This document shows positions 15,377 to 36,405 of a DNA stretch of 64,000 nucleotides, one piece after another. The position numbers and the translations under genes were made by a program. Every line of letters starts with the position of its first letter. Positions within the stretch are counted from its first letter, which is position 1. The stretch comes from Candidatus Poribacteria bacterium (GTDB lineage: Bacteria; Poribacteria; WGA-4E; PCPOR2b). The notes below the pieces were generated by a model, which saw nothing but the letters and a program-made list of their open reading frames with translations, was not told the DNA's origin and did no database searches. The stretch spans positions 1,280,001 to 1,344,000 of the forward strand of contig OZ242326.1 in assembly GCA_965208325.1 (NCBI GenBank), read 5' to 3'.

Positions 15377-15404
15377 GCGCGTCAACGGGAAAAAGTGTTA
15401 CAAC

Positions 15405-16767: not shown

Positions 16768-16840
16768 CTGAAACTTGAGAATTCCTAAGCGAGTCGGTTA
16801 CGCGTAGTGATGCAATTTCGAAACAGCCGGAGGTATCGAC

Positions 16841-17704: not shown

Positions 17705-17915
17705 ATTGGGTCATATTTGCATTTTTAAATTAGAAACAACCTGCTTTTTTAGGATAGTGCACAAATCGTTAATAAACTGCGGTGGTTCGGTTTCCTAGTC
17801 TAAACGGTACTATCCAGTCCCTAGATGCGGTTAGATATCGCACCTACCGAATCATGTTTAAAATGGATGAAATGGACTTTAACATGAGGCAAAATGAAAT
17901 TAGGAGAATTTTTTT

Positions 17916-18698: not shown

Positions 18699-18726
18699 GA
18701 TAAATAGGCACGGGAGGTATAGCACT

Positions 18727-20905: not shown

Positions 20906-21655
20906 TTACAGATTGAGCACATCACGCATGAATCGACAGCTCATGGTGATACTGTCGTTGGGTGCTTTGTCAGTCCGATCCTGCTCGACCATCAACCACT
21001 CCACGTCAACTTCGTCGACTGCCCGCATAATTGCCTCCCAATCGAGAATTCCGTGCCCAACTTCTCCGAAAGAGCCGTCAGGGTTCATATCTTTGAAGTG
21101 AAGATAGGCAACTCGATGCGCATACCGCATTAAAAACTCCGCGGGGTCGTCACCGCCGCTCTTTACCCAATACGTGTCGACACAAGCATGCACATATTGT
21201 GGATCTGTCGATTCATACAGTTTCACGATTCCGGTGGTCCCGCCAAAATCCTTAAATTCCCAATTGTGATTGTGGTAGCAAAGTTTTATTCCCGCATTGT
21301 TGCAACGTCGTCCAACCTCGTTGAAGACTTCAGCGGCGCGCTCATAGTCATCAAGCGAGTCGTTTCCACCAACACCGGAAACCATGAGGTAGCCACACCC
21401 CGCCGCCTCTGCGGCTTTAATCATGCCGTCAAAATGCTCAGGGCTGCCGTAACCGGTGTGAACGCCTGCTGTCACTAAATTGTGGGACGATAGCAGGCCA
21501 TTTACTTCCTCAATTGACCGTCCTCCTGCGGTCGGGTCTCCGGTTTCTATACCATCGTAGCCGGCAGCGGAAATTTCGGTGAGGACGCCTGGGAGATCGT
21601 TGCTTGGGCGATCGCCGTAGATTATGAAATGACAACCAACTTTATACTTGCTCAT
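20906..21655 (-). CDS. Sugar phosphate isomerase/epimerase (xylose-isomerase-like TIM barrel)
   Basis: GYDGIE, YHNHNWEF, DTYW, HFKD, VEQD; SD AGGAGG. Confidence 0.85.
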   Translation of the reverse strand: MSKYKVGCHFIIYGDRPSNDLPGVLTEISAAGYDGIETGDPTAGGRSIEEVNGLLSSHNLVTAGVHTGYGSPEHFDGMIKAAEAAGCGYLMVSGVGGNDSLDDYERAAEVFNEVGRRCNNAGIKLCYHNHNWEFKDFGGTTGIVKLYESTDPQYVHACVDTYWVKSGGDDPAEFLMRYAHRVAYLHFKDMNPDGSFGEVGHGILDWEAIMRAVDEVDVEWLMVEQDRTDKAPNDSITMSCRFMRDVLNL

Positions 21656-21931
21656 AGCACCCCTCCTCATGTTGTACGGAATTTCGCAGAAATTTTAATT
21701 GAAAACTTTAAGTGGCATCGACGCTCTCTAAACTGAAAGTGTTAAAATTTAGTATGCGTTGCGAATTTTACAAAATGACACACATTCGGTACGTCATTCT
21801 TTGCGCCCGTTATCAATCATTCAATTTCTTGCGAAAACGCAAATTACTAAAGCTGAATTATTCACTCAAGAAAGATACCATTTCAATATGCAATACCGCA
21901 AGAGATTTATGAGATTGCTAGTTTTTGTGTC

Positions 21932-21960
21932 TTGACAAGATTTCTTGACTGTGATAGAAT
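21932..21960 (+). promoter_or_regulatory. Near-consensus sigma70 promoter of the large operon
   Basis: TTGACA-17nt-TAGAAT with extended TG. Confidence 0.7.
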
Positions 21961-22075
21961 CTCAACGATTTTCGTAAGGTGCGAGAAACTGCCCAAAATT
22001 GTACGATCCCCAAATTCATCATTCGACCTATCTTCGCCTTGTGCAAACAAGGAGACAATCAACGGAGAACAAAAC

Positions 22076-25000
22076 ATGACTGCGAGAAACTCGTTTGTCT
22101 GTGTTATAGGATTTTTCCTGCTCACCTTGATTTCCTCGCAGATGCTGTTAGCATCCGAAGGAGACCAATCCATCGGCCTTTCAGAAATTGCTGTTGAGAT
22201 TCGGGATCAGGTGGATATCGGCAGTATGCGAAAGGACATCGCACGGCTTTCTAGCCTATCGAGCCGCGTGACGGGTTATCCCGAAGCGGCTTCCGCCAGC
22301 AAATACATCTTCGACCGGTTTGCAGAGATAGGCTTGCAGAATGTCGAAAGCCGCGAATTCCCAATCACCGTTCCGATGGACCATGGCGACGGAACGCTTG
22401 CGGTGCTTGATGAACACGAGAATGCGATCGTGACGATTGATTTGCGGTCGGTTTGGCCAAACCTCGTCCGAACCTCACTACTTCCCACAGGAATTAAACA
22501 TCTGGTTGAAGGCGGAGAATCCTTAGAGGCAATTGCTCAATCCTACCGCGTTGACATTCAATCCATTCTTGATGACCCTCACAATAAGTTTCTCCAAGAT
22601 CAGGCGACCGACGGGCGGGACAACAACGGCGATGGATTGGTCGATGAACCCGGGGAATTCGCGTTGATAGACGGAAATAAGATATTTATACCTACCGGCG
22701 GATTAACCGCGCCGCTTTTTTACGGCGGCGGCGGCGAATTGGTAGACTTCAATGGAAAAGACATCGGCGGTTTTTGGTACGAGGTTCAGCCGGGTGATAC
22801 CCTGCGAGACATTGCCCATCGCTTTCGCGTCGGCGTCGGGAGCATCACCGATGATGTACTAAACGGTCATCTTCAGAAAACCGAGGACGGTATTGATAAC
22901 AACGAGAATGGTCAAATTGATGAATACGGGGAAATCCCACTCCTCGCGGATATTTTGCATTGGGATACAGACGGCATTGATAACGACGCGGACGGCTTTA
23001 TTGATGAGCAACCCGGCGGAGAGACGGACGGCATAGACAACAACAACGACGGACGTATTGACGAGGATGGCGAGTTCATCGCTGCTTACGAATCGAGCAT
23101 CTTTATACCTCGCGGCAGCGTAGTATTGATCGATTTCAACTCCAGTACCAAATGGATTAACGCAGCAATGCTCGGCGCGAAGGCGGTAGTTTTCATTGAA
23201 CCGGAAACCACAATTCGCGGTGAAGCAGAGAATAAGTTCCTGACTGTTCCCGCCAACATACCGCGGTTTTGGATTTCTCGGACGGATGCTGAAAAACTGT
23301 TAACGATGCTTGGTGAAACTTCCGACCCTACCTCATCCGGCGGCGAACAACATAAGGAGGCCAGGGACGTCACTGTCCGTCTCAGTGCAACGATGACTTG
23401 GGAACGACGAATTGGGCAGAATATCCGCGGTTTTCTTGATGGAGGCGATCCAGCACTCAAGGATGAACTTGTCGTAATCACGGCGTATTATGACTCCATG
23501 TCGGTTGTTCCTGCGATTGCGCCAGGCGCTGATCCTACCGGTGGGATCGCTGCGCTTCTCGAATTAGCGCGCATTTTTAGCAAAGCAGAATTCCGGCCGG
23601 GGCGTTCAATACTGTTCGTTGCTGCGGACGCACATTTTCAGGGGTTGGCAGGAATGCGAGCGTTCATGGAGGGGATTGGCCAAGATGTTGTGGGGCGCGA
23701 AGCCGATTCACCCGGAACGCCAACCATGCGCGGACTGCGACGGGGTTTAGCAGCAGACCTGTTTGAATTTAAAGAACTCGGCCGCAAGCTGTTGCTGTCT
23801 ATAGATAGGAACGTATTGGTGGATTTGCCTCCGAATTTCTTTTACGAAGTCCATCAACTTGACGCTGCCCTCGATTCACTCCAAATTACATTAGGCGATC
23901 TTGAAGGGACTCGAGGCCGTGTCGAATGGTTAAGGGACGCTCAAAGGGATTATAAAGAAAAACAGAAGAAGAAACTAGAAACTACTAAAAAACGCGAAAA
24001 ACAGGGTTTTACCCAAGAGGAGCATTCCCGCCTCGAAATAAACCTGGCTAAGTACAAAAAGGATGCGTTACAGACTACCCAATTTTTGCGATCTGTAGTC
24101 AGACGTGTGGATAATTTACGTTCTCAAGCCTTGGAAGAGTCTCGAAAGGCGCAACGGGATCTGATTGAGAATATCGCGTTGCCGATGGCGCGGCTTGATG
24201 AGTGGGCGATTACCAAGCTAGAGGCCGATCTGGCGGCGAAAAACATCGGTGGCAACTACGACCGAACGGCTGACAGTTCCTACCTTCAGCCGAATGCGGA
24301 CGAAGACGGAAATTACCACCTACAGGTACCGTCCGATTTGGTTGGCACGCCTTTGGCAGAAGCAGTGATTCGGCTTTCCGGCCATTTAGAGGATTGGGAA
24401 CTCAAAGACCGCCGAAAGTTTGCGCTTCAATATGCTCAAGAACAACTCCTGGATCGGCATCTCGATTTTCACGGCTTGGAACAGATAAAAGAAGCCCGCA
24501 CAATTGTACATCGCGCGACTAGAGCCTTAAGCGAGTACATTGCCGAAGAGGAACAGGTCTTATTCCGCACGCTCCAAAAGATACCTTCCGATTCAGACTC
24601 GGCGTCACGCATCAAAACCGCCATTAACAGTTTACGAAGGGATGCTGCATATGCTCCGGATGATATAGACACGATTGTCGGTCCATTCCTTGGCGAATCC
24701 AGTCTCGACCGATTCAAGACCATTCAAAAACAGCTTCGTCAAAAATTGGCGGAAATCGAGACCGCCGATGCCGGCGCAGTAGATCGAGAATCGCATGCCA
24801 TTTTCATTGAAGAACTGACTAAAGATAAACAAGCCATCTTCGAAACCGCCATGCGAAATGCAAGACTTGAACGGCAGCGAATTGAGTCGCTTTTGGAATT
24901 GCAACGCCACGCGTCGTTGAACCGACCGTATCTTGAGGAAGAATTACTGGTGTTGAGCCACTACCTTCCAGCCGACGAAGTTGACACGGCGATAGAGGTA

Positions 25001-28000
25001 CGCGCCCAGGTTGTCGCACAACTGGAGCAACAACGTCTGCTTCGGCTAGTTAAACAGCGTGCGAAGAACGATGTTGTAGAACTTCAGAATATGTTAAACC
25101 GCTTAGACGAACTCGACCGAGATCTTCCAGAAGAGATGAAGACGCTGCTTCGCGATAACATGCTAACGCTGCGAAATGCCAGATTCCGTAACATCCAAAA
25201 ACGGGTGCAGGTGATTGCACGAATTAGCAAGTCGGAATATGACCGGAAAGTTACCAACATCGAGCAGGCAATTGCCCTACAAGACCTTTTCAACCGCTAC
25301 TATACCTCGTTGTTTGTTTCTATCGACTTATCTACCCAAAATGACAAATTTGGTGTGTTCAACAAAGGTTGGTTCTACGACCAGCAACCTGAATTTGTGC
25401 TGCGGCGCGAGTTTGCTTTCATCGGCAACAAACTCGCCGAGTATGCCGAGGATGTAGATTTTGGCGTCCGTATTAACAACCTTTGGACGTTTACGGACGA
25501 TCAGATTCGGCAGGCGGTGATGAACAGTCAATGGGAAATCGCATCTGGCATTGAGTCCAAACAGGCGATAGAGGGCAAATCGTTGGAGACGCTGATTGAC
25601 GAACACTACACGACGTTAGTCAAACTTTCCGGCGTTTCGCGTTTAATGAAGATGCAGTTTGAACAGATGAGAGACCGAGGCGAACCGTCTGAAGATATGC
25701 TGAAGGATATGGACTATATCCGTAAGGAGGTCGAGCGATTCATCCGAAACGATCAGCGCGAAGCCCGAAAAGAACGCAAAAACAGTATTCGCCTCTTCAA
25801 TCGGCTGCCTGCAATGCTTGCCCTTCGGAAAGTGAAACCGTCCGATTTGACCGAGGAGGAAATTGATGACATCAAGACTCTTATAGACATTGTCGGGTTA
25901 GGAGGGGCTACCAACTTCGTTAACGCTATTTCTGCTTCAGGCGGAAAAACATGGACAACGTATATCCCCGGCAAAATTGCATTTGACAGCGAAGTCGCGA
26001 CGCTAGTCGGTAAAACGGGGATTGCATTTGCCACCATAGATGATGCGCGGGTGCTCACGGACACGCCTTTAGATACAATTGATAAAATGGATTTGAGGGA
26101 AGACGGTAATTTACACAGACAGGCGAAAACGCTCGCAGCAATTCTAATTCAGGCGATGCGGGACCCGAAGATGCCGACCGCGGCGCGTGTAGGCAACTTC
26201 TATTGTAATCTGTTTGGCGACGTTGTAGAGTACGATGCACGCGAAAGCGCTTTGCCGAACAAACCGGTGCCGCATCCAATTCTTACGCTGCGGCGTAAAA
26301 ACAAGACAATGATGGGTGTTCGCGGCGATCTCTTTACGATGGGAGACAACAAAGGCGTGTTCGAAGTGGTCGGATTGGCGATGGAAGGGCGCGCCATTCA
26401 ACGGCGCGGCGGCACGCAAGAGGTCGAAGCGTATATCCTTGATTCCGATTCGGGAGATATTTCCTACGCACCCGATTTGGGCAACTTTGGCGCAGAACTA
26501 CTACCGAATAAGGTGCCTATCACCACACGCCGGCGCGGTTGCCGCATTGTGGTTTTTCCGTGCGTTTCCACCACCATCTACGACTTGGTCGACCAGCGGT
26601 ATTTGCGGACACTTCGCGAATTGAACGTCTATGATGCGCGAAGCGACAGTCCTCCGGAGAAATACGGCGTTTCCAAGCCGTGGCAACAGCCGATGGTCTC
26701 GGCGACAGAACCGATTGCCTTGGTCTATTCTGAACCGAATTCCCGCATCAAAATCGGCATGGCATACGGCCAAATTGGCAAACGGCTGCTGCTGATTAAA
26801 GCAGGCAAGAGCGGCGCCAAAAACCCGACCCTTTACACTGGAGAAGGGTTCGTCGTGCAGGAAAACGGCTCTGTGCGCCTCACTCCGTACGTCGTCGTGC
26901 GCGACATGTGGTGGCTGGATGAAAACCGCACCAGCCTTTACAAACGGTTCGGTATTAGCAGTGATCGACTCGACAAACTACACCTTTTTTCGAACGAACA
27001 TTTAGAACAGGCAGAAGTTGCTTTGGATAAAAAGGACTATTCCATGGCGATGAAACTGGCCCGCGGGGCATGGGGCTACGAATCGCGTGCATATCCAGAT
27101 GTTAAAAAGACCGGCAACGATGTGGTTAACGGTGTTATGTTCTATCTCGCACTGCTAATCCCGTTTGCGTACTTTATGGAACGCCTAATTTTCGCATTTC
27201 CGGATGTTCACAAACAGATTCTCGGTGTGTTTGCCATCTTTCTCGTAGTGTTCTTTTTCCTCTCGCAAGCACATCCAGCCTTCCAGATTACCACGACGCC
27301 AGTTATTATACTAATTGCCTTCGTTGTGTTAGCATTAACTGTGATCGTGATAAGTATCATCGTCCGGAAATTTGAGGAGCAGTTAGAACAGATTAAGCAG
27401 GAACGGTCGAAGGTTTATAAAGCGGATGTTGGCCGCCTTGCCGCGTCCGCCGCAGCCTTTAGCCTTGGCATCTCCAATATGCGCAAGCGGAAAGGCCGCA
27501 CTCTCCTTACATGCGCCACGCTGGTAATTTTAACATTCACGGTAATCTCCTTCACATCGGTTCGAACCTTTATGCAACCCAACAGCACCTCTTTGCCTTC
27601 TGTAACGCCCAAATACACGGGGATGCTGATTCGAGATCAATACTGGATTCCATTGGAGGAACCGGTAATTACGTCCGTAACGAACGATATGCGTAAAACG
27701 CGGATTGGCGAAAATGAACTCCGACTCCTGTTGAAAAAGAAAGGGAAGTCGCCCGCTGAAGTTGATTCGCTGCTTGCCTCGGCTAAAATTGATGGGGATA
27801 ATGGTACTGGGGCAGAGGTCAGGTCCTCGACTGCGGCCAGTGGGCTGAAGGATCAAGCGTATATCACGGTGCACAATGTTGTCGCGCCGCGGGCATGGTA
27901 TCAGTCTTCGGGTACCGGCGATCAATCGTTCGTGCAGTTGACGCGTATTGAGAATTCCAAAGATCCTGTGCCGCCGAAAGATCCATTGACCGATGAACCG

Positions 28001-29512
28001 CTAAGTTTTGCGGCAAACATGCTGGTGGGAATGAGCCCTGATGAGCCGGGTGTCACCGGTATTGACCGTTACCTCCAGTACGGCAAATGGTTTGACCCTG
28101 CAGACGAAGCGGAATGGCCGACCCAATGGCCGTATGTGTGCGTATTGCCGAAAGGTATGGCGGATCTCTTGGAAATCAGCGAATCTGATATGGGGAAAGC
28201 CACTATCTCAGTTTATGGTGCCAAATTCACTGTAACCGGTGTGTTGGGCATTGGGTTTAAGGATTTGACAGATAATGACGGCGAAGAACTCACTCCTGTT
28301 GATTATCAATTGATGCATCAGCAGCAATCGCGCGGGGGCGAGGGAGAAGAAACGCTTGAGGGCGAGTTACAGAAGTATCTCCACCTTACGCCGGATAGCA
28401 TCGCAGTTTTGCCATACGAGGTAATAATTAATCAAGGCGGAACACTGCGATCGGTCGCGGTTAATATGAACCCTCAAGAAGGCGATCCGCCGTTCCTGAC
28501 CGGCGTTGATAAACTAGATTTAATAATGGCACCCCTAATGAGCCGCATTGCACTCGACTTTTTCGTCGGCCGGAACAAAGATACTTACCTCTACAGCTCA
28601 ATTGGGATGACTTCTTTCTCCGGCATGGGGAACTTATTTGTGCCAATACTTATCGCGTCACTAATCGTACTGAACACAATGCTCGGCGCCGTGTATGAAA
28701 GAGTTCGGGAAATTGGTATTTACAGCTCTGTCGGGCTTGCGCCGGTGCATATCGCTTTTCTGTTTCTTGCAGAGGCGTGTGTGTACGCGATTGTGGGGGC
28801 AGTGTTGGGTTACTTACTCGGTCAAGTCGTGGCTACTCTCCTAGTGAATTTTGGCTGGCTTGCTGGATTGACCCTCAATTACTCATCAATGTCCACAGTG
28901 GTGGCAACCATTATCGTTATGTTAGTGGTCATAAGCAGCACACTTTACCCCGCTGTAAAAGCCGGACGGATGGCTGTGCCCGACATTGAACGGAAGTGGA
29001 AATTACCTGAACCGGAAGGCGACGAGTGGCACTTTGACCTTCCCTTCACTGTTCTATCCGAGGAATCACTTGGTTTGAACGTATTTATGCGGGACTATTT
29101 TGAAGCCCACTCCGACGAATCTGCGAGCGATTTCTATACTGACCAAATCTCTTTTAACCGGTCAACCGAGGAGATTGAAGGCAGGGAAAAAGAAACGTAC
29201 GCGATAAGCATGATGGCATGGGTAGCCCCTTACGATTTAGGGGTCGGTCAATCCATTCGATTTGTGACTTCTCCGGTTGGCGGCGAAGAAGAGGATCTCT
29301 ACAACATCACCCTTGATGTGCACCGCGAAAGCGGCGAAATTGCCTCTTGGAAACGCGTCAACCGGCGTTTCTTGAACCTAATTCGCAAGCAACTGTTGGT
29401 CTGGCGAACCTTCAGCGCCGATGTTCGCGGCGAGTTCCATGAACGCGGTCGGCACGATCGCCAATTCACGGATGCTCCTAACCTTGAACTAGCACCACAG
29501 CCGGCGGACTGA
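22076..29512 (+). CDS. Giant fusion protein: signal peptide, degenerate M28 peptidase/PA domain, 2x LysM with DxDNxxDG repeats, helical inserts, MacB/FtsX permease
   Basis: Start ATG 22076 after GGAG; hydrophobic signal; SRVTGYP, VITAYYD, PGAD..GIAALLELAR; LysM segments (GESLEAIA, GDTLRDIA); LGISNMRKRKGRTLLT and NTMLGAVYERVREIGIYSSVG (FtsX). Confidence 0.85.
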   Translation: MTARNSFVCVIGFFLLTLISSQMLLASEGDQSIGLSEIAVEIRDQVDIGSMRKDIARLSSLSSRVTGYPEAASASKYIFDRFAEIGLQNVESREFPITVPMDHGDGTLAVLDEHENAIVTIDLRSVWPNLVRTSLLPTGIKHLVEGGESLEAIAQSYRVDIQSILDDPHNKFLQDQATDGRDNNGDGLVDEPGEFALIDGNKIFIPTGGLTAPLFYGGGGELVDFNGKDIGGFWYEVQPGDTLRDIAHRFRVGVGSITDDVLNGHLQKTEDGIDNNENGQIDEYGEIPLLADILHWDTDGIDNDADGFIDEQPGGETDGIDNNNDGRIDEDGEFIAAYESSIFIPRGSVVLIDFNSSTKWINAAMLGAKAVVFIEPETTIRGEAENKFLTVPANIPRFWISRTDAEKLLTMLGETSDPTSSGGEQHKEARDVTVRLSATMTWERRIGQNIRGFLDGGDPALKDELVVITAYYDSMSVVPAIAPGADPTGGIAALLELARIFSKAEFRPGRSILFVAADAHFQGLAGMRAFMEGIGQDVVGREADSPGTPTMRGLRRGLAADLFEFKELGRKLLLSIDRNVLVDLPPNFFYEVHQLDAALDSLQITLGDLEGTRGRVEWLRDAQRDYKEKQKKKLETTKKREKQGFTQEEHSRLEINLAKYKKDALQTTQFLRSVVRRVDNLRSQALEESRKAQRDLIENIALPMARLDEWAITKLEADLAAKNIGGNYDRTADSSYLQPNADEDGNYHLQVPSDLVGTPLAEAVIRLSGHLEDWELKDRRKFALQYAQEQLLDRHLDFHGLEQIKEARTIVHRATRALSEYIAEEEQVLFRTLQKIPSDSDSASRIKTAINSLRRDAAYAPDDIDTIVGPFLGESSLDRFKTIQKQLRQKLAEIETADAGAVDRESHAIFIEELTKDKQAIFETAMRNARLERQRIESLLELQRHASLNRPYLEEELLVLSHYLPADEVDTAIEVRAQVVAQLEQQRLLRLVKQRAKNDVVELQNMLNRLDELDRDLPEEMKTLLRDNMLTLRNARFRNIQKRVQVIARISKSEYDRKVTNIEQAIALQDLFNRYYTSLFVSIDLSTQNDKFGVFNKGWFYDQQPEFVLRREFAFIGNKLAEYAEDVDFGVRINNLWTFTDDQIRQAVMNSQWEIASGIESKQAIEGKSLETLIDEHYTTLVKLSGVSRLMKMQFEQMRDRGEPSEDMLKDMDYIRKEVERFIRNDQREARKERKNSIRLFNRLPAMLALRKVKPSDLTEEEIDDIKTLIDIVGLGGATNFVNAISASGGKTWTTYIPGKIAFDSEVATLVGKTGIAFATIDDARVLTDTPLDTIDKMDLREDGNLHRQAKTLAAILIQAMRDPKMPTAARVGNFYCNLFGDVVEYDARESALPNKPVPHPILTLRRKNKTMMGVRGDLFTMGDNKGVFEVVGLAMEGRAIQRRGGTQEVEAYILDSDSGDISYAPDLGNFGAELLPNKVPITTRRRGCRIVVFPCVSTTIYDLVDQRYLRTLRELNVYDARSDSPPEKYGVSKPWQQPMVSATEPIALVYSEPNSRIKIGMAYGQIGKRLLLIKAGKSGAKNPTLYTGEGFVVQENGSVRLTPYVVVRDMWWLDENRTSLYKRFGISSDRLDKLHLFSNEHLEQAEVALDKKDYSMAMKLARGAWGYESRAYPDVKKTGNDVVNGVMFYLALLIPFAYFMERLIFAFPDVHKQILGVFAIFLVVFFFLSQAHPAFQITTTPVIILIAFVVLALTVIVISIIVRKFEEQLEQIKQERSKVYKADVGRLAASAAAFSLGISNMRKRKGRTLLTCATLVILTFTVISFTSVRTFMQPNSTSLPSVTPKYTGMLIRDQYWIPLEEPVITSVTNDMRKTRIGENELRLLLKKKGKSPAEVDSLLASAKIDGDNGTGAEVRSSTAASGLKDQAYITVHNVVAPRAWYQSSGTGDQSFVQLTRIENSKDPVPPKDPLTDEPLSFAANMLVGMSPDEPGVTGIDRYLQYGKWFDPADEAEWPTQWPYVCVLPKGMADLLEISESDMGKATISVYGAKFTVTGVLGIGFKDLTDNDGEELTPVDYQLMHQQQSRGGEGEETLEGELQKYLHLTPDSIAVLPYEVIINQGGTLRSVAVNMNPQEGDPPFLTGVDKLDLIMAPLMSRIALDFFVGRNKDTYLYSSIGMTSFSGMGNLFVPILIASLIVLNTMLGAVYERVREIGIYSSVGLAPVHIAFLFLAEACVYAIVGAVLGYLLGQVVATLLVNFGWLAGLTLNYSSMSTVVATIIVMLVVISSTLYPAVKAGRMAVPDIERKWKLPEPEGDEWHFDLPFTVLSEESLGLNVFMRDYFEAHSDESASDFYTDQISFNRSTEEIEGREKETYAISMMAWVAPYDLGVGQSIRFVTSPVGGEEEDLYNITLDVHRESGEIASWKRVNRRFLNLIRKQLLVWRTFSADVRGEFHERGRHDRQFTDAPNLELAPQPAD

Positions 29513-29609
29513 TGAATTGATGAGTCGGAAAAGCACCGGTAGAATTCCGCGAATTCCTTAACGAGAAAGTTGCGGCATTTAGCACATTACGCGAAGGGAA
29601 ACAATACGC

Positions 29610-29789
29610 ATGGTAAACTTTGGAGAAAAGTTAGCAAGCTTTTTTATCATCATCGGCGTAATTCTTTGGGTCATATCTATCTTCTTTTTGGGTGGGCGAT
29701 GGCAGCCGCAGGTGCTTTCGGCCGCAATTTTGGTTGTCGCCATCTTTATCGCCCACATCTGGGAGGAACTCTTTCAGCAAAAAAAATGA
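29610..29789 (+). CDS. 59-aa two-TM microprotein (absent from the ORF track)
   Basis: MVNFGEKLASFFIIIGVILWVISIFFLGGRWQPQVLSAAILVVAIFIAHIWEELFQQKK; purine-rich GAAGGGA upstream; lies inside the operon. Confidence 0.7.
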   Translation: MVNFGEKLASFFIIIGVILWVISIFFLGGRWQPQVLSAAILVVAIFIAHIWEELFQQKK

Positions 29790-29863
29790 CCGTGCGTAAT
29801 ACGAACGCGTAGCACTCTTGACTTTCGCACATTTCGTCATGTGCTACGAAAGGAGAATTAAAT

Positions 29864-31852
29864 TTGGCGAGAGAGAGAATATCGCAAGCCGAGGAGTGGC
29901 AGGCTTGGGCGCAGCGTTACGATATGGAGGGCGGGATTCGGACTTTTGAATCCGGATTAACTCTCAAAGTCTTTTTAGGGGCGCTTTTTGTAGGGCTGTT
30001 GATGATGCCGGGCTCAATCTACCTGCAATTAGTGTCGGGCCAAACGGGCGCGGGCGCCGCGCCGTGGGTAGCGGTCATTCTATTTACAGAATTGGCGCGC
30101 CGCTCATTTACGACCGCCAGACGACAGGAGTTATTCTTACTGCTTGGACTTACTGGTGCGGCGGTCGGTTCGGGGCTTCAGTACCGCGGCTTCATCTGGT
30201 ACGCCTATTTTGTGCAAACGCCTCAAGCAGAGTCCTATGAAATAGCCGACAAGATTCCTTTTTGGGTCACGCCATCACCGGATTCGATTGCTATTGCCGA
30301 AAGATCGCTTTTGCACATGGATTGGTGGACGCCTATTTGGATCTTTTTGGTCATGCGGCTGCTTGGGACAATCCGACATATCAGCGCAGGTTATTTTTTG
30401 TTCCGGCTCACTGCTGACCTAGAACGACTTCCGTATCCACTAGCGCCTATTGAAGCACAAGGAGCGACGGCTCTGGCAGAGACCACAGGCAGGGCGGAAA
30501 CGTGGCGTTGGCGTGTGTTTTCTATCGGTTCCATGGCGGGGTTACTGTGGGGTTTTCTCTATATCGGTATTCCTTCACTTACTGGCGTGATGATGTCAGA
30601 GCCGATTGAGATTCTAAAAATCCCATTTATTGATTTTACGCCTAGTATTGAAGGTTTTGCGCCGACAGGAGTGTTTGCGCTCTCCACCGATTTTGGACAA
30701 ATTCTCTTTGGGTTTGTGCTGCCATTTCCAATCGTGATGACTGAATTCATCGCGGCAATGTTTACCCAGTTTTTCCTGAATCCGCAACTCTACCAACATG
30801 AAATTTTGTATCAATGGCGTGCGGGTTTGGATGTCCGCGGCGTGGGTTTGTTCAATGGCTTGGATTTCTGGATTAGCGCCAATATGGGTAAAGCTTTCAG
30901 TTTCGCAATCGTTGGACTTGCTGCATCTGTTCCCATGCTAATGAAATTTCGGTCTGCTAGACAGGAAACTACCGGTACGCGCGGGTCGCTTCAAACACCA
31001 CCGGGACGCGGAGATTTTCCGCTCTGGCTAATGGCGGGATTGTGGCTTATCGGCATGATCGGTTTTGTGTGGATGGTGCATTGGATGGTACCGAATTTTC
31101 CGATGAAATTTTTGCTCGGCTTTGCTTTTATATACACCCCGCTAAATTCCTACGTCACTGCGCGTACATTTGGGGTATTGGGGCGGGATCTCTTTGAAAT
31201 CCCCTATATCCACGAGACTACCTTTATCTTGAGCCGCTACGAGGAAATCGACATTTGGTTCGTTGAATTACCAAATGAGGACTACGGCCGCGGCACACAA
31301 GGTTGGCGTGTGTGCGAACTGACGGGAACTACGTTTACAAGTAACATTGCAGCCCATCTATTGATTATGCCGATCCTACTAATTTCTGGAATTCTGGTAT
31401 GGCATTTCATTTGGAAAATTGCGCCAATTCCTTCAGCGCAATATCCTTTCGCTCAAACTTGGTGGCCAATTTACGCAACCAACGAATGTCTGTGGAAGAC
31501 CTCACTTCGAGATGGAAGCAGTCAGATGTTGCAAGCCATCAGAGGCGACTACGTTGCGACCGGATTGACCGGCTCGCTTGCTATCTACGGCCTCCTCTGG
31601 TTAGCAAAGATGCCTAGTATGTGGTTTTACGGCATCGTGGGCGGTATCGGCGCCGACCCAGGGATGATGATTCCACGGCTAATCGGGGCAATAATAGGCC
31701 GCTTTTATATGATCAAGCGATTCGGGTTGAAACGGTGGTTTATGTTTAATCCAGTTTTGGCAGCCGGTTTTACCTGCGGTGTTGGCCTTATTGGAATGGG
31801 AACGGTGGCTATCGCATTGGTTTCCAAAGCAGTCATTGTTAAACCGTTCTGA
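29864..31852 (+). CDS. OPT/YSL-like polytopic membrane protein (putative peptide transporter)
   Basis: SD AAGGAG with TTG start; many TM segments; MMPGSIYL, ILFTELARRS, ERLPYPLAP, IPSAQYP. Confidence 0.75.
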   Translation: MARERISQAEEWQAWAQRYDMEGGIRTFESGLTLKVFLGALFVGLLMMPGSIYLQLVSGQTGAGAAPWVAVILFTELARRSFTTARRQELFLLLGLTGAAVGSGLQYRGFIWYAYFVQTPQAESYEIADKIPFWVTPSPDSIAIAERSLLHMDWWTPIWIFLVMRLLGTIRHISAGYFLFRLTADLERLPYPLAPIEAQGATALAETTGRAETWRWRVFSIGSMAGLLWGFLYIGIPSLTGVMMSEPIEILKIPFIDFTPSIEGFAPTGVFALSTDFGQILFGFVLPFPIVMTEFIAAMFTQFFLNPQLYQHEILYQWRAGLDVRGVGLFNGLDFWISANMGKAFSFAIVGLAASVPMLMKFRSARQETTGTRGSLQTPPGRGDFPLWLMAGLWLIGMIGFVWMVHWMVPNFPMKFLLGFAFIYTPLNSYVTARTFGVLGRDLFEIPYIHETTFILSRYEEIDIWFVELPNEDYGRGTQGWRVCELTGTTFTSNIAAHLLIMPILLISGILVWHFIWKIAPIPSAQYPFAQTWWPIYATNECLWKTSLRDGSSQMLQAIRGDYVATGLTGSLAIYGLLWLAKMPSMWFYGIVGGIGADPGMMIPRLIGAIIGRFYMIKRFGLKRWFMFNPVLAAGFTCGVGLIGMGTVAIALVSKAVIVKPF

Positions 31853-31965
31853 TGGGCGGAGACTGCGTGAGTAGACAGGACAGGTGTGCGGATTAACATT
31901 TTTTAACTAATCCACGGGCAATGTAGGTATGTCAGGCGGGGATTTCACGCCGCGCGTATGACGGT

Positions 31966-32898
31966 ATGGAATGGACAAATTTTGGTTGGGCGGGTATCAC
32001 TTTAGAGATTCCAGCGAACTGGGAGTTGAGTGGATTATCTGGTGACGAGAAAAAAGGGTACTTGCGGTTAGACGATGAAACGACGCCGCGTCTAGAGTTA
32101 AAGTGGTCTGAATCGAAGCAGAAGAAACCGGATCTGCATCGCGTCCTAGACGAATATTTCAAACTAATCCGCAAGAATTTTAGGCGTACAGAGGCTAAAC
32201 TTCATATCCAGCGGAATGTCAATCTCATCAAAGATGAATCCTTCCTTGACGGTAAAGAGGCAGTGTTCTTTAGTTGGAAGGGAAGTTACCGAGCAAATGG
32301 TATAATCTGCCACTGCCACACGTGCAAACGAATCACAATTGTCCAGGTAATGGGACACCTAAAGGAAAATCTTCGCACCACATCCGTACGTATCTTGAGT
32401 TCGCTTCACGATCATCCGGCTGGACCGACGCCCCTGTGGACCGCATACCAACTCAACGTTGAAGTGCCACGCCGATACCGTCTCGAAAAACATCAGTTCC
32501 TGTCCGGATATCTATTAATGTCTTTCGTTGATGGCAGCCGCAAACTTTCAATTGAAAGATATGGGCTAGCGGATATTACTCTCAAAGAGAGCGATTTGGA
32601 GTCTTGGTTTCGAGCCAAGTATACCAAGGCTATTCGAGGATATGGCTTCGAAATGGAATCTATACAATCCGACGATGGAGATGAGAGGTTTAGGTGCATT
32701 GGTGAACGTACACGTCTGACCGATCACATACCCTTTGCACCTGTATTGATTATTGACAAAATATTGCGGCGGCAAACCTTTGCCGCTCACATTCGGCATT
32801 GCTACAAGTCCAATCGCATCTATGTTTTACAAGCGGTCGCCAAGCGCGATGCAGCTAAGACGGTGGAGGGGGTTGCAGCAAGCATTCGATGTCACTAG
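31966..32898 (+). CDS. Cytoplasmic hypothetical protein with an internal duplication
   Basis: 310-aa ORF in the operon; two similar halves (W..+.+E+P..W/Y.L....GYL ... HC...R+.++Q). Confidence 0.75.
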   Translation: MEWTNFGWAGITLEIPANWELSGLSGDEKKGYLRLDDETTPRLELKWSESKQKKPDLHRVLDEYFKLIRKNFRRTEAKLHIQRNVNLIKDESFLDGKEAVFFSWKGSYRANGIICHCHTCKRITIVQVMGHLKENLRTTSVRILSSLHDHPAGPTPLWTAYQLNVEVPRRYRLEKHQFLSGYLLMSFVDGSRKLSIERYGLADITLKESDLESWFRAKYTKAIRGYGFEMESIQSDDGDERFRCIGERTRLTDHIPFAPVLIIDKILRRQTFAAHIRHCYKSNRIYVLQAVAKRDAAKTVEGVAASIRCH

Positions 32899-32917
32899 AG
32901 AATAGTATTGAACGCAA

Positions 32918-33337
32918 ATGATTAATACCATTCTTTACAAACTCAGATTAAAAAAACGTCCAGATTCGGAATTTGACCGAGAGCGTATCTTAAACGCATT
33001 ACCGCTTCGAAACCAGTTAATCAAATGGGAAGTTGATGACAAAGAGGAGGTTTCACTTGTTATTCCCCAGCAACAGAAACTATGGATTCGGATAGCTTCC
33101 AAGATTTTTTCCTTGCCTAACAAACGTGTAATTGTTTTGGATGATGTCGGGTCATTTGTATGGCGTCTATGCGATGGGAATAACTCGATTAGCCAAATTG
33201 CCAAACACCTTAGTGCACAATACCGCATGACACGGAAAGAAGCGGAAACGTCGCTGTTCACGTTTATGCGGCAGTTGGGCAAACGAAATATTATTGGATT
33301 TGCCGTTTCCAAAAAAGCAAAAGGAGGGGAGAAATAG
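32918..33337 (+). CDS. PqqD/RiPP-recognition-element-like protein
   Basis: IVLDDVGSFVWRLCDGNNSISQIA..L...Y and F+RQLGKRNII, the winged-helix PqqD signature. Confidence 0.82.
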   Translation: MINTILYKLRLKKRPDSEFDRERILNALPLRNQLIKWEVDDKEEVSLVIPQQQKLWIRIASKIFSLPNKRVIVLDDVGSFVWRLCDGNNSISQIAKHLSAQYRMTRKEAETSLFTFMRQLGKRNIIGFAVSKKAKGGEK

Positions 33338-34153
33338 ATGGCAGAAGCCCAAGCAATAGATGCAAATAGTGGTGATGTTCCTGCCGAAACTACTGAGCGA
33401 GCAACACGGCAGTTGCCGAAGGAAAACACCGTGCGCGTCAGGAACTTAATTAAAAGATATGAGATGGGTACGAGTATCGTCGGTGCACTACAAGGCGTTA
33501 ATTTCGAAATTCGCCGAGGCGAATACATATCCATTATTGGCCCCTCTGGTAGCGGCAAATCCACGCTTTTTAACATGATTGGGGGACTGGATAAACCGAC
33601 GGAAGGCAGGGTGTATATTGATGAGGTGGATATTGCGCAGTTAGACGCATATGAGCTTGCATGGCTTCGTTGCCGTAAGATCGGTTACATATTCCAATCG
33701 TTCAATTTAATTCCTGTGATGACTGCCTTGGAAAATGTCTCCCTACCGATGATATTTGGCGGTATGACCGCCGATGACAGCCGCCAAAAAGGAGCGGACC
33801 TGCTTACGCTTGTGGGGTTAGGCGATCGCATACAGCATAAACCACTTGAACTCTCCGGTGGACAGCAACAACGCGTTGCCGTTGCGCGCTCCCTTGCCAA
33901 CGATCCGGCAATTGTGCTTGCGGACGAGCCGACAGGCAATCTTGATACCCATACGGGCCTAGAGATAATTGCCCTTCTGAAACAGTTGAACGAAGAAAAT
34001 GGTGTGACAATCATTACTGCTACTCATGATACAAAGATGCTTGACGTATCGGACCGCATTTTCTATATGGCTGACGGAAAAGTCGAGAAGATTGAGACCC
34101 GCGACGAAATTGATTTGCAGGTCGGTCGGCTGGACGGTCAGGAAGTTGGGTAG
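33338..34153 (+). CDS. ABC ATP-binding protein, LolD/MacB type
   Basis: [35 protein letters not shown]; its start abuts the stop of the PqqD gene. Confidence 0.95.
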
Positions 34154-34983
34154 GTTTTGTGTTATCACCAAATGTTGGTGTACAACTGCTTTAAGTAAGC
34201 TCACACAGTGTTACGGGCACAAGCATGGCGCAAATTCTGACGAAAACATTATCACAGGTTTTACTCATTGTCCATTTTTAATCCACGAACTATTTTCCCT
34301 TCCCTATTTCAATTTCACAAGCCGTTAACCATTTTTCATTTTCCCTCCAATTATTCGTCCTGATTTACCTTACACCGTAAGCGAAGAGAATTGCCTGCAA
34401 ATTGAGTTGAATACCTGCCGGTCTCACTTGAGATGTTCTTCTCTCCTTGCCGATAAATGGTATAATGAGCAAAAATCTAGTAGCATGACAAATCGCATAT
34501 CTTAGCGTATGATTGAATAATAGGCGACGAGGCGACATTTTGACGTTTGAATTGTAACATTCGGTGAAATTTCTATCGCGCTCCTTATTCGGTCGCTCGA
34601 TCCCACGATGGGGCTTTTGATGTATGGGCAATTGACGCTTCAATTTACCTTTCGCACTTCTATTCCTTTGCCTTAACAGCTTGTAAAAAAGCTGATGGCG
34701 AAAAATTTTTTGGTCACTTGGGATCCAAATCATAGGAGATTGAGGACTCTTTACACCAAAAATTTCCCCACAAAGACGGATTCGGACTTTTCAAACAAGT
34801 TGCATAAGAAGCCAGTTCTTCGACCACAAATATCGATTGCATTTCAGGCATGAATTGTGAGATAATGTCCAATAGGACTGCCTTGAATATTTTTTTTACA
34901 GGGGTTACCCGTTAGCAAGAATTCTGAATTCAATTCTGGAATATACGGCTTATACTTAGAAAACCAAATGGAGGAAATTTACG

Positions 34984-36405
34984 ATGAGAATGCACATTGG
35001 CGGAGAGTGGGTTGATAGACCACAGAAGATAGATGTGTTGAACCCTTTTGACAACTCGGTTGTCGACACGATTCCGAAATCAAACCTCAACGATGTTGAA
35101 AATGCGATTGAAACTGCAGTGCGCGGCGCAAAAGCCATGGCGAAGCTGACCGGCTACGAGCGATACGAAATTCTTCACAAAGCCTCAGAACTGATGGCGG
35201 AACGCGCGGAAGATTTGGGCCGCACGATTACATTAGAAGAAGGCAAGATTATCGGTGAAGGGCGAATGGAAGCTAGCCGTGCTGCGGAGATTATCGCACT
35301 TTCGGCTGAAGAAGCTAAACGGCTTGGCGGTGAGGTTGTTCCGCTAGAAGGTGCACCGGGTGCTCACGGCAAGTTCGGATTTACTGTGCGCGTACCTTGC
35401 GGCGTCGTTGTAGGTATAAGTCCATTCAACTTTCCGCTTCACCTTGTCTGTCATAAAGTCGGACCTGCATTGGCAGCAGGAAACGCTATTATCGTCAAAC
35501 CCGCTACTGATACACCGCTGTCGGCACTTAAGCTAGTTGAGATTCTATTGGAGGCTGGCGCACCGCCAGAAGCGATTCAGTGTTTGACAGGCCAGGGCGG
35601 AGATATTGGAGATGCGTTATGCGCTGATCGACGCGTCCGAAAGATTACCTTCACTGGCAGCCGTGATATTGGCGAACATATTTGCCACGTTGCTGGGCTA
35701 AAGCGGGTGACAATGGAGTTAGGTTCAAACTCGCCGCTCATTGTTATGCCTGATGCGGATCCGGAGAAGGTCGCCAAAGCGGCGGCGGCATCCGGATTCT
35801 CAAATGCCGGTCAGGTCTGCATCTCGACACAGCGAGTTATCGCTCACGAGAAGATTTACGGAGACTTTCTGGATGCCTTTAAAACGACAGTTGAGGAAAT
35901 CACTACTGGAGATCCGCTTGATGAGCCTACACGGATGGGACCGATGATTCGCGAGTCCGATGCAATCCGAGTGGATCAATGGGTCGAGGAAGCTCTCGGT
36001 GACGGCGCTGAACTGATTGCAGGTGGGGGAAGGAACGGTCAAATTTATAATCCCACAGTCGTCGCGAACGTTAAACCGGAGATGAAAATTTCCTGCGATG
36101 AAATTTTTGGACCGGTTGTTGGCGTAACCCCCGCAGAAAACATCGATGATGCCATTGCGTTAGCCAACGACACGAACTATGGGTTGAGTGCGGCGATTTG
36201 CACCCAAAACATTGACTGGGCGATGAAATTCGTGCGAGAGGTAGAGTCGGGTAACCTGATGGTTAATTGGGGAACCCAGTGGAGGGCCGACTTGATGCCT
36301 TATGGAGGGCTAAAAGAGAGCGGCATGGGTAAAGAGGGACCCAAGTACGCCGTGGAAGAAATGACCGAGCTGAAAATGGCAATCTTCCATTTGAGCGACG
36401 CGTAG
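34984..36405 (+). CDS. NAD(P)-dependent aldehyde dehydrogenase
   Basis: ISPFNFP, FTGS, MELGSN, AGQVCIS, EIFGP; SD GGAGG. Confidence 0.92.
   Translation: MRMHIGGEWVDRPQKIDVLNPFDNSVVDTIPKSNLNDVENAIETAVRGAKAMAKLTGYERYEILHKASELMAERAEDLGRTITLEEGKIIGEGRMEASRAAEIIALSAEEAKRLGGEVVPLEGAPGAHGKFGFTVRVPCGVVVGISPFNFPLHLVCHKVGPALAAGNAIIVKPATDTPLSALKLVEILLEAGAPPEAIQCLTGQGGDIGDALCADRRVRKITFTGSRDIGEHICHVAGLKRVTMELGSNSPLIVMPDADPEKVAKAAAASGFSNAGQVCISTQRVIAHEKIYGDFLDAFKTTVEEITTGDPLDEPTRMGPMIRESDAIRVDQWVEEALGDGAELIAGGGRNGQIYNPTVVANVKPEMKISCDEIFGPVVGVTPAENIDDAIALANDTNYGLSAAICTQNIDWAMKFVREVESGNLMVNWGTQWRADLMPYGGLKESGMGKEGPKYAVEEMTELKMAIFHLSDA

Follow-up and report, generated by a model that had tools for sequence, protein, structure and literature searches.

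What six co-oriented genes at positions 22076-34153 of the window (the whole 64,000-nucleotide stretch of DNA analysed here) might do together is the question raised by this locus, in which every feature discussed below lies on the + strand. The preliminary description had read the genes as one cell-envelope machine that matches no characterised pathway, and indeed a literature search for a described counterpart of the gene set found none. We describe here the composition of the set, its conservation, its co-inheritance, the pairing of copy numbers and the fold assignments of its products; the gene set and the domains ascribed to it earlier are upheld by profile and fold matches. With a probability of about 0.42, we propose that this is the Poribacteria version of a conserved cytoplasmic-membrane system in which a type VII ABC module works together with an OPT-fold permease, its most likely task being to capture and take up a substrate.

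The six genes are separated by gaps of 97, 74, 113, 19 and 0 nt and lie downstream of a near-consensus promoter-like site (21932..21960) made of TTGACA, a 17-nt spacer and a TG-extended TAGAAT. This site scores 11/12 with an upstream TG and is located within a 260-nt divergent intergenic region. Because the number of promoter-like sites in this region equals that in shuffles (17 versus 16.3), it is plausible, not proven, that TTGACA-17-TAGAAT serves as the promoter of the set; of the proposed arrangement of six co-oriented genes with short or no gaps behind one promoter, the genes and gaps stand, and the promoter is plausible only. The real start of the first gene is most likely the ATG at 22076, which is preceded by GGAGA at 8 nt and matches the database gene model P0271 of 2478 aa. 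The TTG at 21932 was ruled out as a start, since it is part of the -35 hexamer of the promoter.

This first gene (22076..29512) encodes a giant permease of 2478 aa whose architecture was derived from Pfam, NCBIfam and PDB sequence matches, hydropathy and a family alignment. From the N terminus it comprises a signal peptide, an ectodomain that contains two LysM-like stretches as well as Asp-rich repeats, a PA-like domain, an M28-like fold split by a charged insert, a conserved 340-aa domain and a 3-TM block, followed by MacB TM1, a periplasmic core domain (PCD), FtsX TM2-4 with a coupling helix, and a cytoplasmic C-terminal domain of ~170 aa. PDB sequence matches are to MacB, LolC and an aminopeptidase, and the hydropathy fits TM1, PCD and TM2-4 with the coupling helix. 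FtsX (PF02687) scores 46.2 bits, above its cut-off of 25.5, over residues 2237-2347 of the 2526-aa ORF, and 44-63 bits in 7/7 homologues of other phyla; the domain itself (TM2-TM4, 28640..28972), including the coupling helix ERVREIG, aligns to residues 516-654 of MacB 5lil and is 53-78% identical across phyla. MacB_PCD scores 21.4 bits in the window giant, below its cut-off of 27, and 28.6 and 24.2 bits in the orthologues L067 (Brocadiia, above the cut-off) and L072, while PA scores 20.4 bits, below 23.9. None of the NCBIfam equivalog cut-offs is reached by the giant, be it MacB (26.1 versus 966), LolC (26.4 versus 473) or FtsX_actino (21.2 versus 250).

Three further parts of the giant are shared by homologues across phyla. 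The extra three-TM-helix block before the MacB module (27122..27361; family alignment and hydropathy) is among the best conserved parts of the protein, with 50-68% identity. The 340-aa ectodomain module (26237..27256; residues 1436-1775 of the 2526-aa ORF) is 34-44% identical, gave 0 matches at E<=10 in a profile search of PDB sequences, and in the Atlas matched nothing but clusters without a name, none of them above 0.86. The cytoplasmic C-terminal domain (28985..29491), family-specific by alignment, also had 0 matches against PDB sequences. Other parts are confined to one lineage. LysM (PF01476) reaches 28.6 bits versus 20.9 over only 24/43 profile positions, with the second stretch below the cut-off, and is absent from 13 aligned homologues of other phyla. 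The charged insert inside the M28-like fold (23729..25891, about 700-720 aa, 52% E/K/R/Q/D/L) occurs in Poribacteria only, its occupancy being near 0 in 13 non-Poribacteria homologues; no PDB sequence match falls within it, and from its composition it is probably helical or coiled coil. The 59-aa microprotein with two hydrophobic helices (29610..29789; ATG ORF) was found by tblastn between the giant and OPT-like genes in 42/47 Poribacteria loci, at 41-97% identity, and in 0/31 loci of other phyla; by these sequence comparisons its gene is a Poribacteria-specific accessory. An overlapping 80-aa TTG ORF, far less conserved than the 59-aa ATG frame, was ruled out as the microprotein gene. The LysM stretches, Asp-rich repeats, long charged insert and microprotein are lineage-specific embellishments, and the view of a LysM "cell-wall tether" and the microprotein as core parts had to be given up, as both are Poribacteria-only additions.

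The head of the giant resembles a peptidase that lacks the usual catalytic residues. Peptidase_M28 (PF04389) scores 34.2 bits versus 21.3 and covers only profile positions 2-78 of 193; this N-terminal half of the fold (23423..23671), aligned to 1amp/2anp, carries non-canonical catalytic/metal residues, and the C-terminal half is placed after the ~720-aa insert. The comparison was made at His97, Asp117, Glu151 and Glu152 of Aeromonas aminopeptidase, co-catalytic zinc ligands and the catalytic Glu, the positions of Asp179 and His256 not being aligned with confidence. At the four positions the head has Y519, D534, H568 and F569 (2526-aa ORF numbering), that is, 3/4 are replaced (H97->Y, E151->H, E152->F), and the pattern Y/F, D/E/Q, invariant H and F/H/G/C holds in 19/19 aligned family members from several phyla. 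With three canonical catalytic/metal residues missing family-wide, the alignment agrees with the earlier assignment of a catalytically dead peptidase fold, although the conserved His and Tyr at the former active site may point to another chemistry instead of a loss of activity. A comparable arrangement, an M28/PA-type ectodomain without catalytic residues on a membrane complex, is found in dead M28-fold receptors, among them nicastrin, nicalin and the transferrin receptor. By sequence, the head weakly matches nicalin (E 1e-4) as well as transferrin receptor / glutamate carboxypeptidase II (E 0.003-0.03); nicastrin itself is not among the matches. Unlike these receptors, the head belongs to a bacterial protein, forms one chain with an ABC permease and is interrupted by insertions specific to the lineage; kinship is at the fold/family level only.

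The last gene of the set (33338..34153) encodes a LolD/MacB-type ABC ATPase of 271 aa, identified by motifs in its translation, Pfam and NCBIfam. Walker A (GPSGSGKST), the signature (LSGGQQQR), Walker B (LADEPT) and the H-loop are intact, and ABC_tran scores 118.9 bits. Its best NCBIfam models are LolD, MacB, YbbA, DevA and FtsE, all below equivalog cut-offs (LolD 233.8 versus 307.75, FtsE 208.8 versus 264.85), and it shares 70-72% identity with its counterpart in the Armatimonadota and WS1 clusters. In other phyla the ATPase gene is adjoined by a gene for a small FtsX protein. In this genome, a 228-aa FtsX-only protein, 40-44% identical to the cluster-adjacent ones of other phyla, is encoded together with a paralogous ATPase 108 kb away; it is single-copy in 40/41 relatives. 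The small FtsX is a core part of the system that is not in the window, and the six genes are not, as had been supposed, the whole machine.

The third gene (29864..31852; TTG start, AAGGAG 8 nt upstream) encodes a 662-aa permease, and it is the predicted fold on which its OPT nature rests. In a Foldseek search with its AF2 model (pLDDT 72.6, pTM 0.77), the top matches were 7wst_A and 7wsr_A, barley Yellow Stripe 1 (YS1), with E 1.1e-9, probability 1.00 and TM 0.62/0.67 over about 670 columns for 7wst_A; the next unrelated match had E 0.03. The model thus shares the overall fold of the OPT/Yellow-Stripe-like family (PF03169; YS1, 7wst), with similar size and helix count, at only 14-15% identity to YS1. 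The protein had no Pfam match at E<=0.1, PF03169 gave 18.9 bits in a six-frame search, under the cut-off of 25.8, and the same profile matched 1/13 relatives (E 5.8e-4). The permease is 74-86% identical across the order and 40-46% identical in other phyla. Genes for DUF6785 OPT-like permeases are scattered over the genome, with 25 here and 9 to at least 28 in 41/41 relatives.

Between the permease and the ATPase, two genes encode proteins that have neither a signal peptide nor a hydrophobic segment and are hence taken to be cytoplasmic adaptors. The earlier reading of the first of them as a duplicated-domain protein is confirmed by structure comparison: p310 (31966..32898, 310 aa; AF2 model, pLDDT 95) has two PsbP/Mog1/DcrB-like domains, residues 1-150 aligning by VIA-align to PsbP 2xb3_A (Z 14.7, rmsd 2.8 over 138 residues) and residues 153-310 to Mog1 1jhs_A (Z 11.7). 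As a Pfam family was matched by 0/71 members, this is a likeness of fold, not family membership. C117, C120, H150, C279, C309 and H310 are conserved, and the protein has 904 representative relatives. The second, of 139 aa (32918..33337), is the sole PqqD match in the genome; it shares a clear domain match with the PqqD / RiPP recognition elements (RRE; PF05402, 47.4 bits versus 23.4). Unlike RiPP PqqD proteins, it has no precursor or maturase alongside, is inherited with membrane transport proteins and carries, as seen in the alignment, a conserved basic N-terminal tail.

Clusters of this kind in other poorly studied lineages, suggested in the preliminary description, were in fact found in several phyla by locus comparison. 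The five larger genes stand in the same order at 44/47 Poribacteria loci, the three exceptions being cut by contig or locus ends, and the gene set is also found in Armatimonadota, Abditibacteriota, WS1, Latescibacterota and Brocadiia, with the gene order repeated in at least 5 phyla. Orders include giant, OPT, p310, PqqD, (small FtsX), ABC in Armatimonadota (L084); giant, OPT, p310, PqqD in Latescibacterota (L107); and p310, PqqD, small FtsX, ABC in Brocadiia (L108). The OPT-like gene adjoins the giant in 21/31 loci of other phyla; the remaining 10/31 have no giant beside it, 2 of them near contig ends and 5 in genomes that hold giants elsewhere. In some genomes, parts of the system are scattered.

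Co-inheritance was followed in 61 sampled genomes of one other phylum, that of L084 (Armatimonadota), with the C-terminal domain of the giant as its family marker. This marker, p310 and the OPT-like protein are each present in 46/61 genomes, PqqD and the small FtsX in 45; all five occur together in 45 genomes, the same 15 are without all five, and one is without two. The counts of giant and OPT-like protein are equal in every genome (1:1, with 2:2 in six and 3:3 in one), while p310 and PqqD stay at one copy, as does the small FtsX except in G077, which has two partial matches. That the system was not found in 15/61 genomes indicates an accessory rather than housekeeping role, and the multiplied giant-OPT pairs fit substrate-specific modules on one shared motor. 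ECF group II and TonB-dependent uptake systems likewise have single-copy motors or adaptors beside multiplied substrate-side modules; by this analogy, which implies no homology, we hypothesize that the motor may be shared among permeases.

Under the proposed uptake reading, the engine would be a type VII (MacB/LolCDE/FtsEX-like) module formed by the FtsX-type part of the giant, the small FtsX and LolD-type ATPases, with each giant paired 1:1 with an OPT-fold permease and the single tandem PsbP-fold, Cys/His-rich protein and single PqqD/RRE protein acting as shared cytoplasmic adaptors. ATP binding and hydrolysis would move the periplasmic domains of the giant by mechanotransmission, the dead-peptidase head would serve as a tethered receptor for an oligomeric substrate that is probably peptide-like, the ligand would pass to the OPT-fold permease for uptake, and the PsbP-fold and PqqD proteins may gate or receive it on the cytoplasmic side. 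We infer both this hand-over path, from ectodomain through OPT channel to cytoplasmic RRE, and the union of the parts in a single physical complex. As in the type VII systems MacAB-TolC, LolCDE and FtsEX-EnvC/PcsB/RipC, the giant has TM1, a periplasmic core domain, TM2-4 and a coupling helix, the LolD/MacB-type ATPase is separate with intact motifs, and by analogy mechanotransmission to an extracytoplasmic domain is to be expected; two different FtsX subunits probably pair here as do LolC and LolE. Unlike in those systems, one subunit is a giant of 1500-2500 aa that combines an M28/PA-like head with a 340-aa module, three additional TM helices and a C-terminal domain in the cytoplasm, its partner is a minimal FtsX that has hardly any periplasmic loop, and the motor is inherited together with an OPT-fold permease, a PsbP-fold protein and an RRE. 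A membrane-fusion or outer-membrane partner was not found next to the clusters, nor did a lipoprotein or hydrolase partner come to light.

Several considerations count against uptake. OPT-family transporters are secondary carriers driven by protons and work without an ABC motor; no tie to an ABC motor gene set is known for OPT carriers, whereas the OPT-like gene here is always linked to one, and coupling of an OPT permease to an ABC motor would, as far as we know, have no precedent. The characterised type VII ABC systems known to us are not importers: they extract substrates, expel them or regulate hydrolases, which favours an outward or regulatory direction, and it is hard to see what a cytoplasmic peptide-binding RRE would do in an importer. 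Alternatively, the PqqD/RRE and PsbP-fold adaptors might bind a peptide or protein segment in the cytoplasm, which would cross via the OPT-fold protein before the MacB-type giant extracts it or passes it on in the periplasm, much as MacB expels periplasmic peptides and LolCDE extracts lipoproteins. The closest sequence matches are indeed MacB, LolC, LolD, DevA and DarD, all characterised type VII systems that we know of act outward or on extracytoplasmic targets, RRE domains present cytoplasm-made peptides, the PqqD protein is the only one in the genome, and both adaptors appear cytoplasmic. However, neither a modifying enzyme nor a conserved small gene for a precursor is present, the only small ORF being the Poribacteria-limited two-helix membrane protein; intergenic gaps are 25-50 nt in some loci; membrane-fusion and outer-membrane partners were not seen beside the clusters; and known OPT-family members are importers. 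We regard such an outward machine as doubtful, though worth serious consideration.

Regulation of wall remodelling, in the manner of FtsEX, is a slim possibility: the motor would drive a pseudo-enzyme head, bound to peptidoglycan through LysM, that controls or performs wall cleavage, with the OPT-fold protein recycling peptides. The LysM-like stretches, the FtsX and FtsE models among the NCBIfam matches, a SPOR-domain gene near the Armatimonadota cluster, and the long charged, probably coiled-coil insert, which in composition only recalls EnvC or PcsB, speak for it, yet LysM and insert are missing from the 13 aligned homologues of other phyla, and a system that is not found in 15/61 genomes of one phylum and multiplied in others is unlike a core wall function. 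PqqD/RRE proteins and MacB-type ATPases are common in RiPP clusters, and NCBIfam gave weak matches, all below cut-off, to lasso and SCIFF-type PqqD models. That the locus serves RiPP maturation and export with the microprotein as precursor is nevertheless highly improbable, given that no maturase (radical SAM, cyclodehydratase, lasso B/C) occurs in the window cluster or among its conserved neighbours, that the microprotein is a hydrophobic two-helix hairpin absent outside Poribacteria, and that, across phyla, inheritance of the set as a unit extends to two large membrane proteins. The scattering of parts in some genomes and the unlinked small FtsX here could also suggest chance neighbours or operon economy, in which case an orphan permease of the MacB type, an OPT-like carrier acting by itself and unrelated proteins of the cytoplasm would work independently; this explanation, already disfavoured, has hardly any likelihood in view of the almost perfectly matched presence and absence, the matched copy numbers in 61 genomes and the gene order recurring in at least 5 phyla.

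In its most far-reaching form, the uptake proposal would describe ATP-driven importers of a new class, in which a MacB-type motor with a tethered dead-peptidase receptor head energises OPT-fold permeases rather than classical ABC transmembrane domains, one motor-plus-adaptor set serving interchangeable permeases, in Poribacteria including the scattered DUF6785-type paralogues; we put this forward as an unlikely, speculative extension. A large, well conserved gene set without described function, with components co-inherited in at least 6 phyla, brings a type VII ABC motor and an OPT-fold carrier together, two principles of transport that to our knowledge have not been seen in combination, and adds a putative receptor head derived from a dead enzyme as well as a peptide-binding RRE that is not part of a natural-product pathway. 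Knowledge of its cargo would extend the known roles of MacB-type motors and RRE domains, and could explain feeding or envelope building in abundant, mostly uncultured groups such as the Poribacteria of sponges, Armatimonadota, Latescibacterota and Planctomycetota.

The six plus-strand genes at 22076-34153 encode a giant membrane protein, a microprotein, an OPT-like permease, a 310-aa protein, a PqqD/RRE protein and an ABC ATPase, and they are, as the preliminary description had it, co-oriented with short or no gaps between them (97, 74, 113, 19 and 0 nt). Their genome (G000) is a single contig (C1) of 4.7 Mb. The gene-neighbourhood comparison that had been proposed for them was carried out here, and it places the five larger genes in the same order at 44 of 47 Poribacteria loci, the three exceptions being cut by contig or locus ends. 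In other phyla, the giant lies directly upstream of the OPT-like gene at 21 of 31 loci, which come from Abditibacteriota, Armatimonadota, WS1, Zipacnadia, Latescibacterota, Brocadiia and one Planctomycetota MAG; two of the other 10 loci are near contig ends. An Armatimonadota locus (L084) holds the full order of giant, OPT-like, 310-aa, PqqD, a small FtsX-only protein and ABC ATPase, and similar clusters, previously only suggested, do exist in other poorly studied lineages; cultured isolates of Abditibacteriota and Armatimonadota are among the carriers of the set. Partial orders are giant, OPT-like, 310-aa and PqqD in Latescibacterota (L107), 310-aa, PqqD, small FtsX and ABC on a separate contig in Brocadiia (L108), and small FtsX, ABC, giant and OPT-like at the WS1/Zipacnadia loci.

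Co-inheritance was followed in 61 genomes sampled from the phylum to which L084 belongs, searched with five profiles or proteins. All five components are present in 45 of these genomes, three of the five in one (G092), and none in the same 15. The number of giants equals the number of OPT-like permeases in every one of the 61 genomes, up to 3:3, while the 310-aa and PqqD proteins are single-copy, as is the small FtsX except in G077, which has two partial matches. This pattern of presence, absence and copy number is what one functional unit predicts, and it does not amount to a statistical test since related genomes are not independent; it also means that a quarter of the sample can do without the system. 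OPT-like genes with no giant beside them, at loci of the Gemmatimonadota type, are judged not to stand alone, as the five genomes checked each hold two or three giants elsewhere, one of which has an OPT-like neighbour of its own.

Several variations on this arrangement were seen. Each of G041-G045 (the genomes of L070, L073, L062, L065 and L086, whose loci are titled Gemmatimonadota, Latescibacterota or simply 'bacterium') has two or three giant paralogues, 1300-1600 aa long, and at least two paralogues (L095, L096) have no adjoining OPT-like gene of the cluster's family. Within Poribacteria, genus g5 (genomes among G007-G024; examples are L015, L016, L020 and L021) shows a tandem duplication of the OPT-like gene in 15 of its 16 genomes, the copies being 78-84% identical to the query; G020 of the same genus, 96% complete, gives no OPT-like match and keeps the small FtsX. 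At WS1/Zipacnadia loci, the OPT-like gene is followed immediately by pseudopilin-like genes with an N-terminal methylation motif and DUF1559 (L077:12150-13925, L074:11515-12441, L087:12029-12829), which in L077 stand between it and the 310-aa gene. L077 and L087 also have a solute-binding-protein gene on the upstream side.

The notion that the six window genes form one complete machine did not survive the comparison, because a core component is encoded elsewhere. In other phyla the neighbour of the ATPase gene encodes an FtsX-only protein, some 230-350 aa long, and the window has no such gene. Its counterpart, a protein of 228 aa that is 40-44% identical to the versions of other phyla, was located 108 kb upstream of the window on the minus strand (G000:C1:1171964-1172647), where its gene and the start of a second LolD-type ATPase gene overlap (the pair spans G000:C1:1171222-1172647, minus strand, or L100:7220-8648). 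Of 41 Poribacteria relatives, 40 have just one copy of the small FtsX, at 66-81% identity outside the genus. The window ATPase is of the LolD/MacB-like kind, has intact motifs and, at 70-72% identity, is orthologous to the ATPase encoded in the clusters of other phyla. The second ATPase is 61% identical to the window copy and 62-63% identical to all of those cluster ATPases, and Armatimonadota and WS1 genomes have a single close copy. Given that a small FtsX orthologue with a second ATPase exists outside the window, the engine is likely an asymmetric FtsX heterodimer of the giant and a minimal partner, by analogy with LolC/LolE, and in Poribacteria it may run on two different ATPases. An unrelated ABC-2 transporter operon adjoins the distant pair.

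The giant's reading frame (2526 aa, used for residue numbers here) is already open from the TTG at the -35 position of the candidate promoter (21932), and its true start is most likely the ATG at 22076, preceded by GGAGA, which gives a protein of 2478 aa; public gene calls hold the same 2478-aa protein (P0271). Pfam recognizes FtsX (46.2 bits), Peptidase_M28 (34.2 bits, over its first 78 positions only) and a partial LysM (28.6 bits), with MacB_PCD and PA each under threshold. In searches of PDB sequences the C-terminal membrane part aligns to MacB and LolC, and residues 510-577 align to Aeromonas aminopeptidase, with weaker matches to nicalin, transferrin receptor and glutamate carboxypeptidase II. 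Hydropathy and alignments give the order of signal peptide, ectodomain of about 1650 aa, three TM helices, basic cytoplasmic linker and MacB TM1, followed by the periplasmic core domain, TM2, coupling helix, TM3, TM4 and a cytoplasmic domain of about 170 aa. Conservation across phyla peaks in the FtsX helices (53-78% identity) and the extra three-TM block (50-68%). Compared with 13 homologues of 1500-1900 aa from other phyla, the LysM-like stretches, the Asp-rich repeats and a charged segment of about 720 aa within the M28-like fold (52% E/K/R/Q/D/L) are insertions particular to Poribacteria. The four Asp-rich repeats, D-G-x-D-N-x-x-D-G-x-x-D-E, follow the LysM-like stretches at window positions 22600-23100 (residues ~225-390) and presumably resemble calcium-binding type-3 repeats.

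The metal ligands and catalytic residues of the aminopeptidase, which we take to be His97, Asp117, Glu151 and Glu152, allow the head of the giant to be judged. With the register set by the 2anp row, which has His at 151, the alignment replaces His97, Glu151 and Glu152 with Tyr, His and Phe and retains Asp117. This Tyr/Asp/His/Phe-type pattern occurs in 19 of 19 aligned members from several phyla, and canonical M28 chemistry is therefore missing throughout the family, which agrees with the dead peptidase fold proposed earlier; the invariant His and Tyr at the old active site may serve another binding or catalytic role. Profile searches at E<=10 found no PDB sequence matching either the conserved 340-aa ectodomain module at residues 1436-1775 or the C-terminal cytoplasmic domain. 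An Atlas search with the module returned only unnamed clusters (scores <=0.86), and kinship of the C-terminal domain with the 310-aa family was rejected (hhalign probability 0.4%).

The OPT-like permease (662 aa) has no Pfam match, and the earlier assignment stands at the level of the fold: its AlphaFold model (pLDDT 72.6, pTM 0.77) matches barley Yellow Stripe 1 with E 1e-9 and TM 0.62-0.67, the next match having E 0.03. We describe this predicted structure as an OPT-fold likeness, not as PF03169 membership. Its sequence is unusually conserved, with identities of 74-86% throughout the order and of 40-46% to homologues from other phyla. The family of the 310-aa protein is unnamed and large, with 904 representatives at E<=1e-3, and none of 71 members matches Pfam. 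The model of the protein (pLDDT 95) bears out the duplicated domain as two PsbP/Mog1/DcrB-like domains with Z of 14.7 and 11.7. C117, C120, H150, C279, C309 and H310 are each conserved in 63-69 of 71 sequences, which suggests a putative metal site common to both halves. The PqqD protein is an unambiguous RRE (47.4 bits) and the sole PqqD of the genome; a complex of it with the 310-aa protein, predicted from alignments of both, scored 0.01 against a mark of 0.32, a value uninformative either way.

The microprotein is not the 80-aa TTG-initiated ORF at 29570-29812, which is poorly conserved, but a 59-aa ATG-initiated ORF in another frame at 29610-29789 (plus strand) with two hydrophobic helices. 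An ORF of 41-97% identity occupies the same position at 42 of 47 Poribacteria loci, and was not found at L051 and L053-L056, in the last four of which just 25-50 nt separate giant and OPT-like gene, nor at any of the 31 loci of other phyla. By this distribution it is a genuine but lineage-specific accessory gene, which upholds its place in the cluster for Poribacteria alone. As to transcription, the intergenic region of 260 nt does contain a promoter-like site, TTGACA-17-TAGAAT with upstream TG, at 21932-21960 (score 11 of 12), but that region is no richer in such sites than shuffled sequence (17 versus 16.3), and the site is therefore a plausible candidate promoter. No RNA family of Rfam matched at E<=0.1 across 21000-35000. 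A divergent gene (20906-21670, minus strand) lies upstream and an ORF (34365-34733, minus strand) downstream. The wider flanks (14567-19650 and 34984-36405) hold ordinary catabolic genes, namely two PhyH dioxygenases, a rhamnose mutarotase, a short-chain dehydrogenase, an HpcH aldolase, an amidohydrolase and an aldehyde dehydrogenase, and a 767-aa DUF3857/transglutaminase-like protein is encoded downstream at 36602-38905.

The closest known kind of system is the type VII ABC family (MacB/LolCDE/FtsEX-like). The cluster proteins do not reach the curated cut-offs for specific membership in LolCDE, MacB or FtsEX, and no described type VII member has an OPT-fold permease, PsbP-fold protein or RRE coupled to it. 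The statement that the parts match no characterised pathway holds for published full text outside subscription journals, in which our searches found no account of such a system. With composition, folds, conservation, co-inheritance and copy-number pairing established here, a mechanism may be proposed in which ATP-driven mechanotransmission through the FtsX module would shift the periplasmic domains of the giant, the dead-peptidase/PA head would act as a tethered receptor, the OPT-fold permease, as 1:1 partner of the giant, would supply the membrane path, and the single-copy PsbP-fold and RRE proteins would work on the cytoplasmic side.

We tentatively favour (probability about 0.4) that the system takes up an oligomeric, peptide-like nutrient, because known OPT-fold proteins are importers, because motor and adaptors stay constant where giant-OPT pairs have multiplied, and because the system is accessory. 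Everything known of type VII ABC systems would instead point to a machine acting outwards, as would the cytoplasmic RRE, and we consider such a direction possible if rather unlikely. Remodelling of the wall is improbable, being weakened by the lineage-specific nature of the LysM and the coiled-coil-like insert, and a RiPP cluster, which would here be one with neither precursor nor maturase, is scarcely credible.

A second, distant family of OPT-like permeases, DUF6785/DUF6784 (PF20581/PF20580), has genes that adjoin giants or OPT-like genes at 9 non-Poribacteria loci; at Latescibacterota- and Brocadiia-type loci they stand beside the giant, and L095 and L097 each have one adjoining theirs. In Poribacteria this family is massively expanded, and G000 carries 25 full-length DUF6785 genes and one fragment scattered over the chromosome, one of them in the window (6667-8574, plus strand) and 24 outside it (L113-L136). 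Copies number from 9 to at least 28 in each of 41 of 41 Poribacteria relatives, and there are none in 14 control genomes. The nearest neighbours of the 25 paralogues, two genes to each side (100 ORFs), are mixed, with oxidoreductases, dioxygenases and hydrolases at about 17 of 25 loci, a census for which we claim no enrichment as it had no control set. A relationship between the cluster's OPT-like alignment and the window's DUF6785 protein was not significant (hhalign probability 0.23%); the two have in common a short motif of acidic residue, E, K/R, L, P/S, aromatic and P. One paralogue (L133:5417-7348, G000:C1:394836-396305, minus strand) is split by an in-frame TGA into ORFs of 340 and 300 aa and could be a pseudogene or reflect a sequencing or recoding issue. 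On the boldest reading, the many DUF6785 permeases would be served in trans by a single giant/ABC set.
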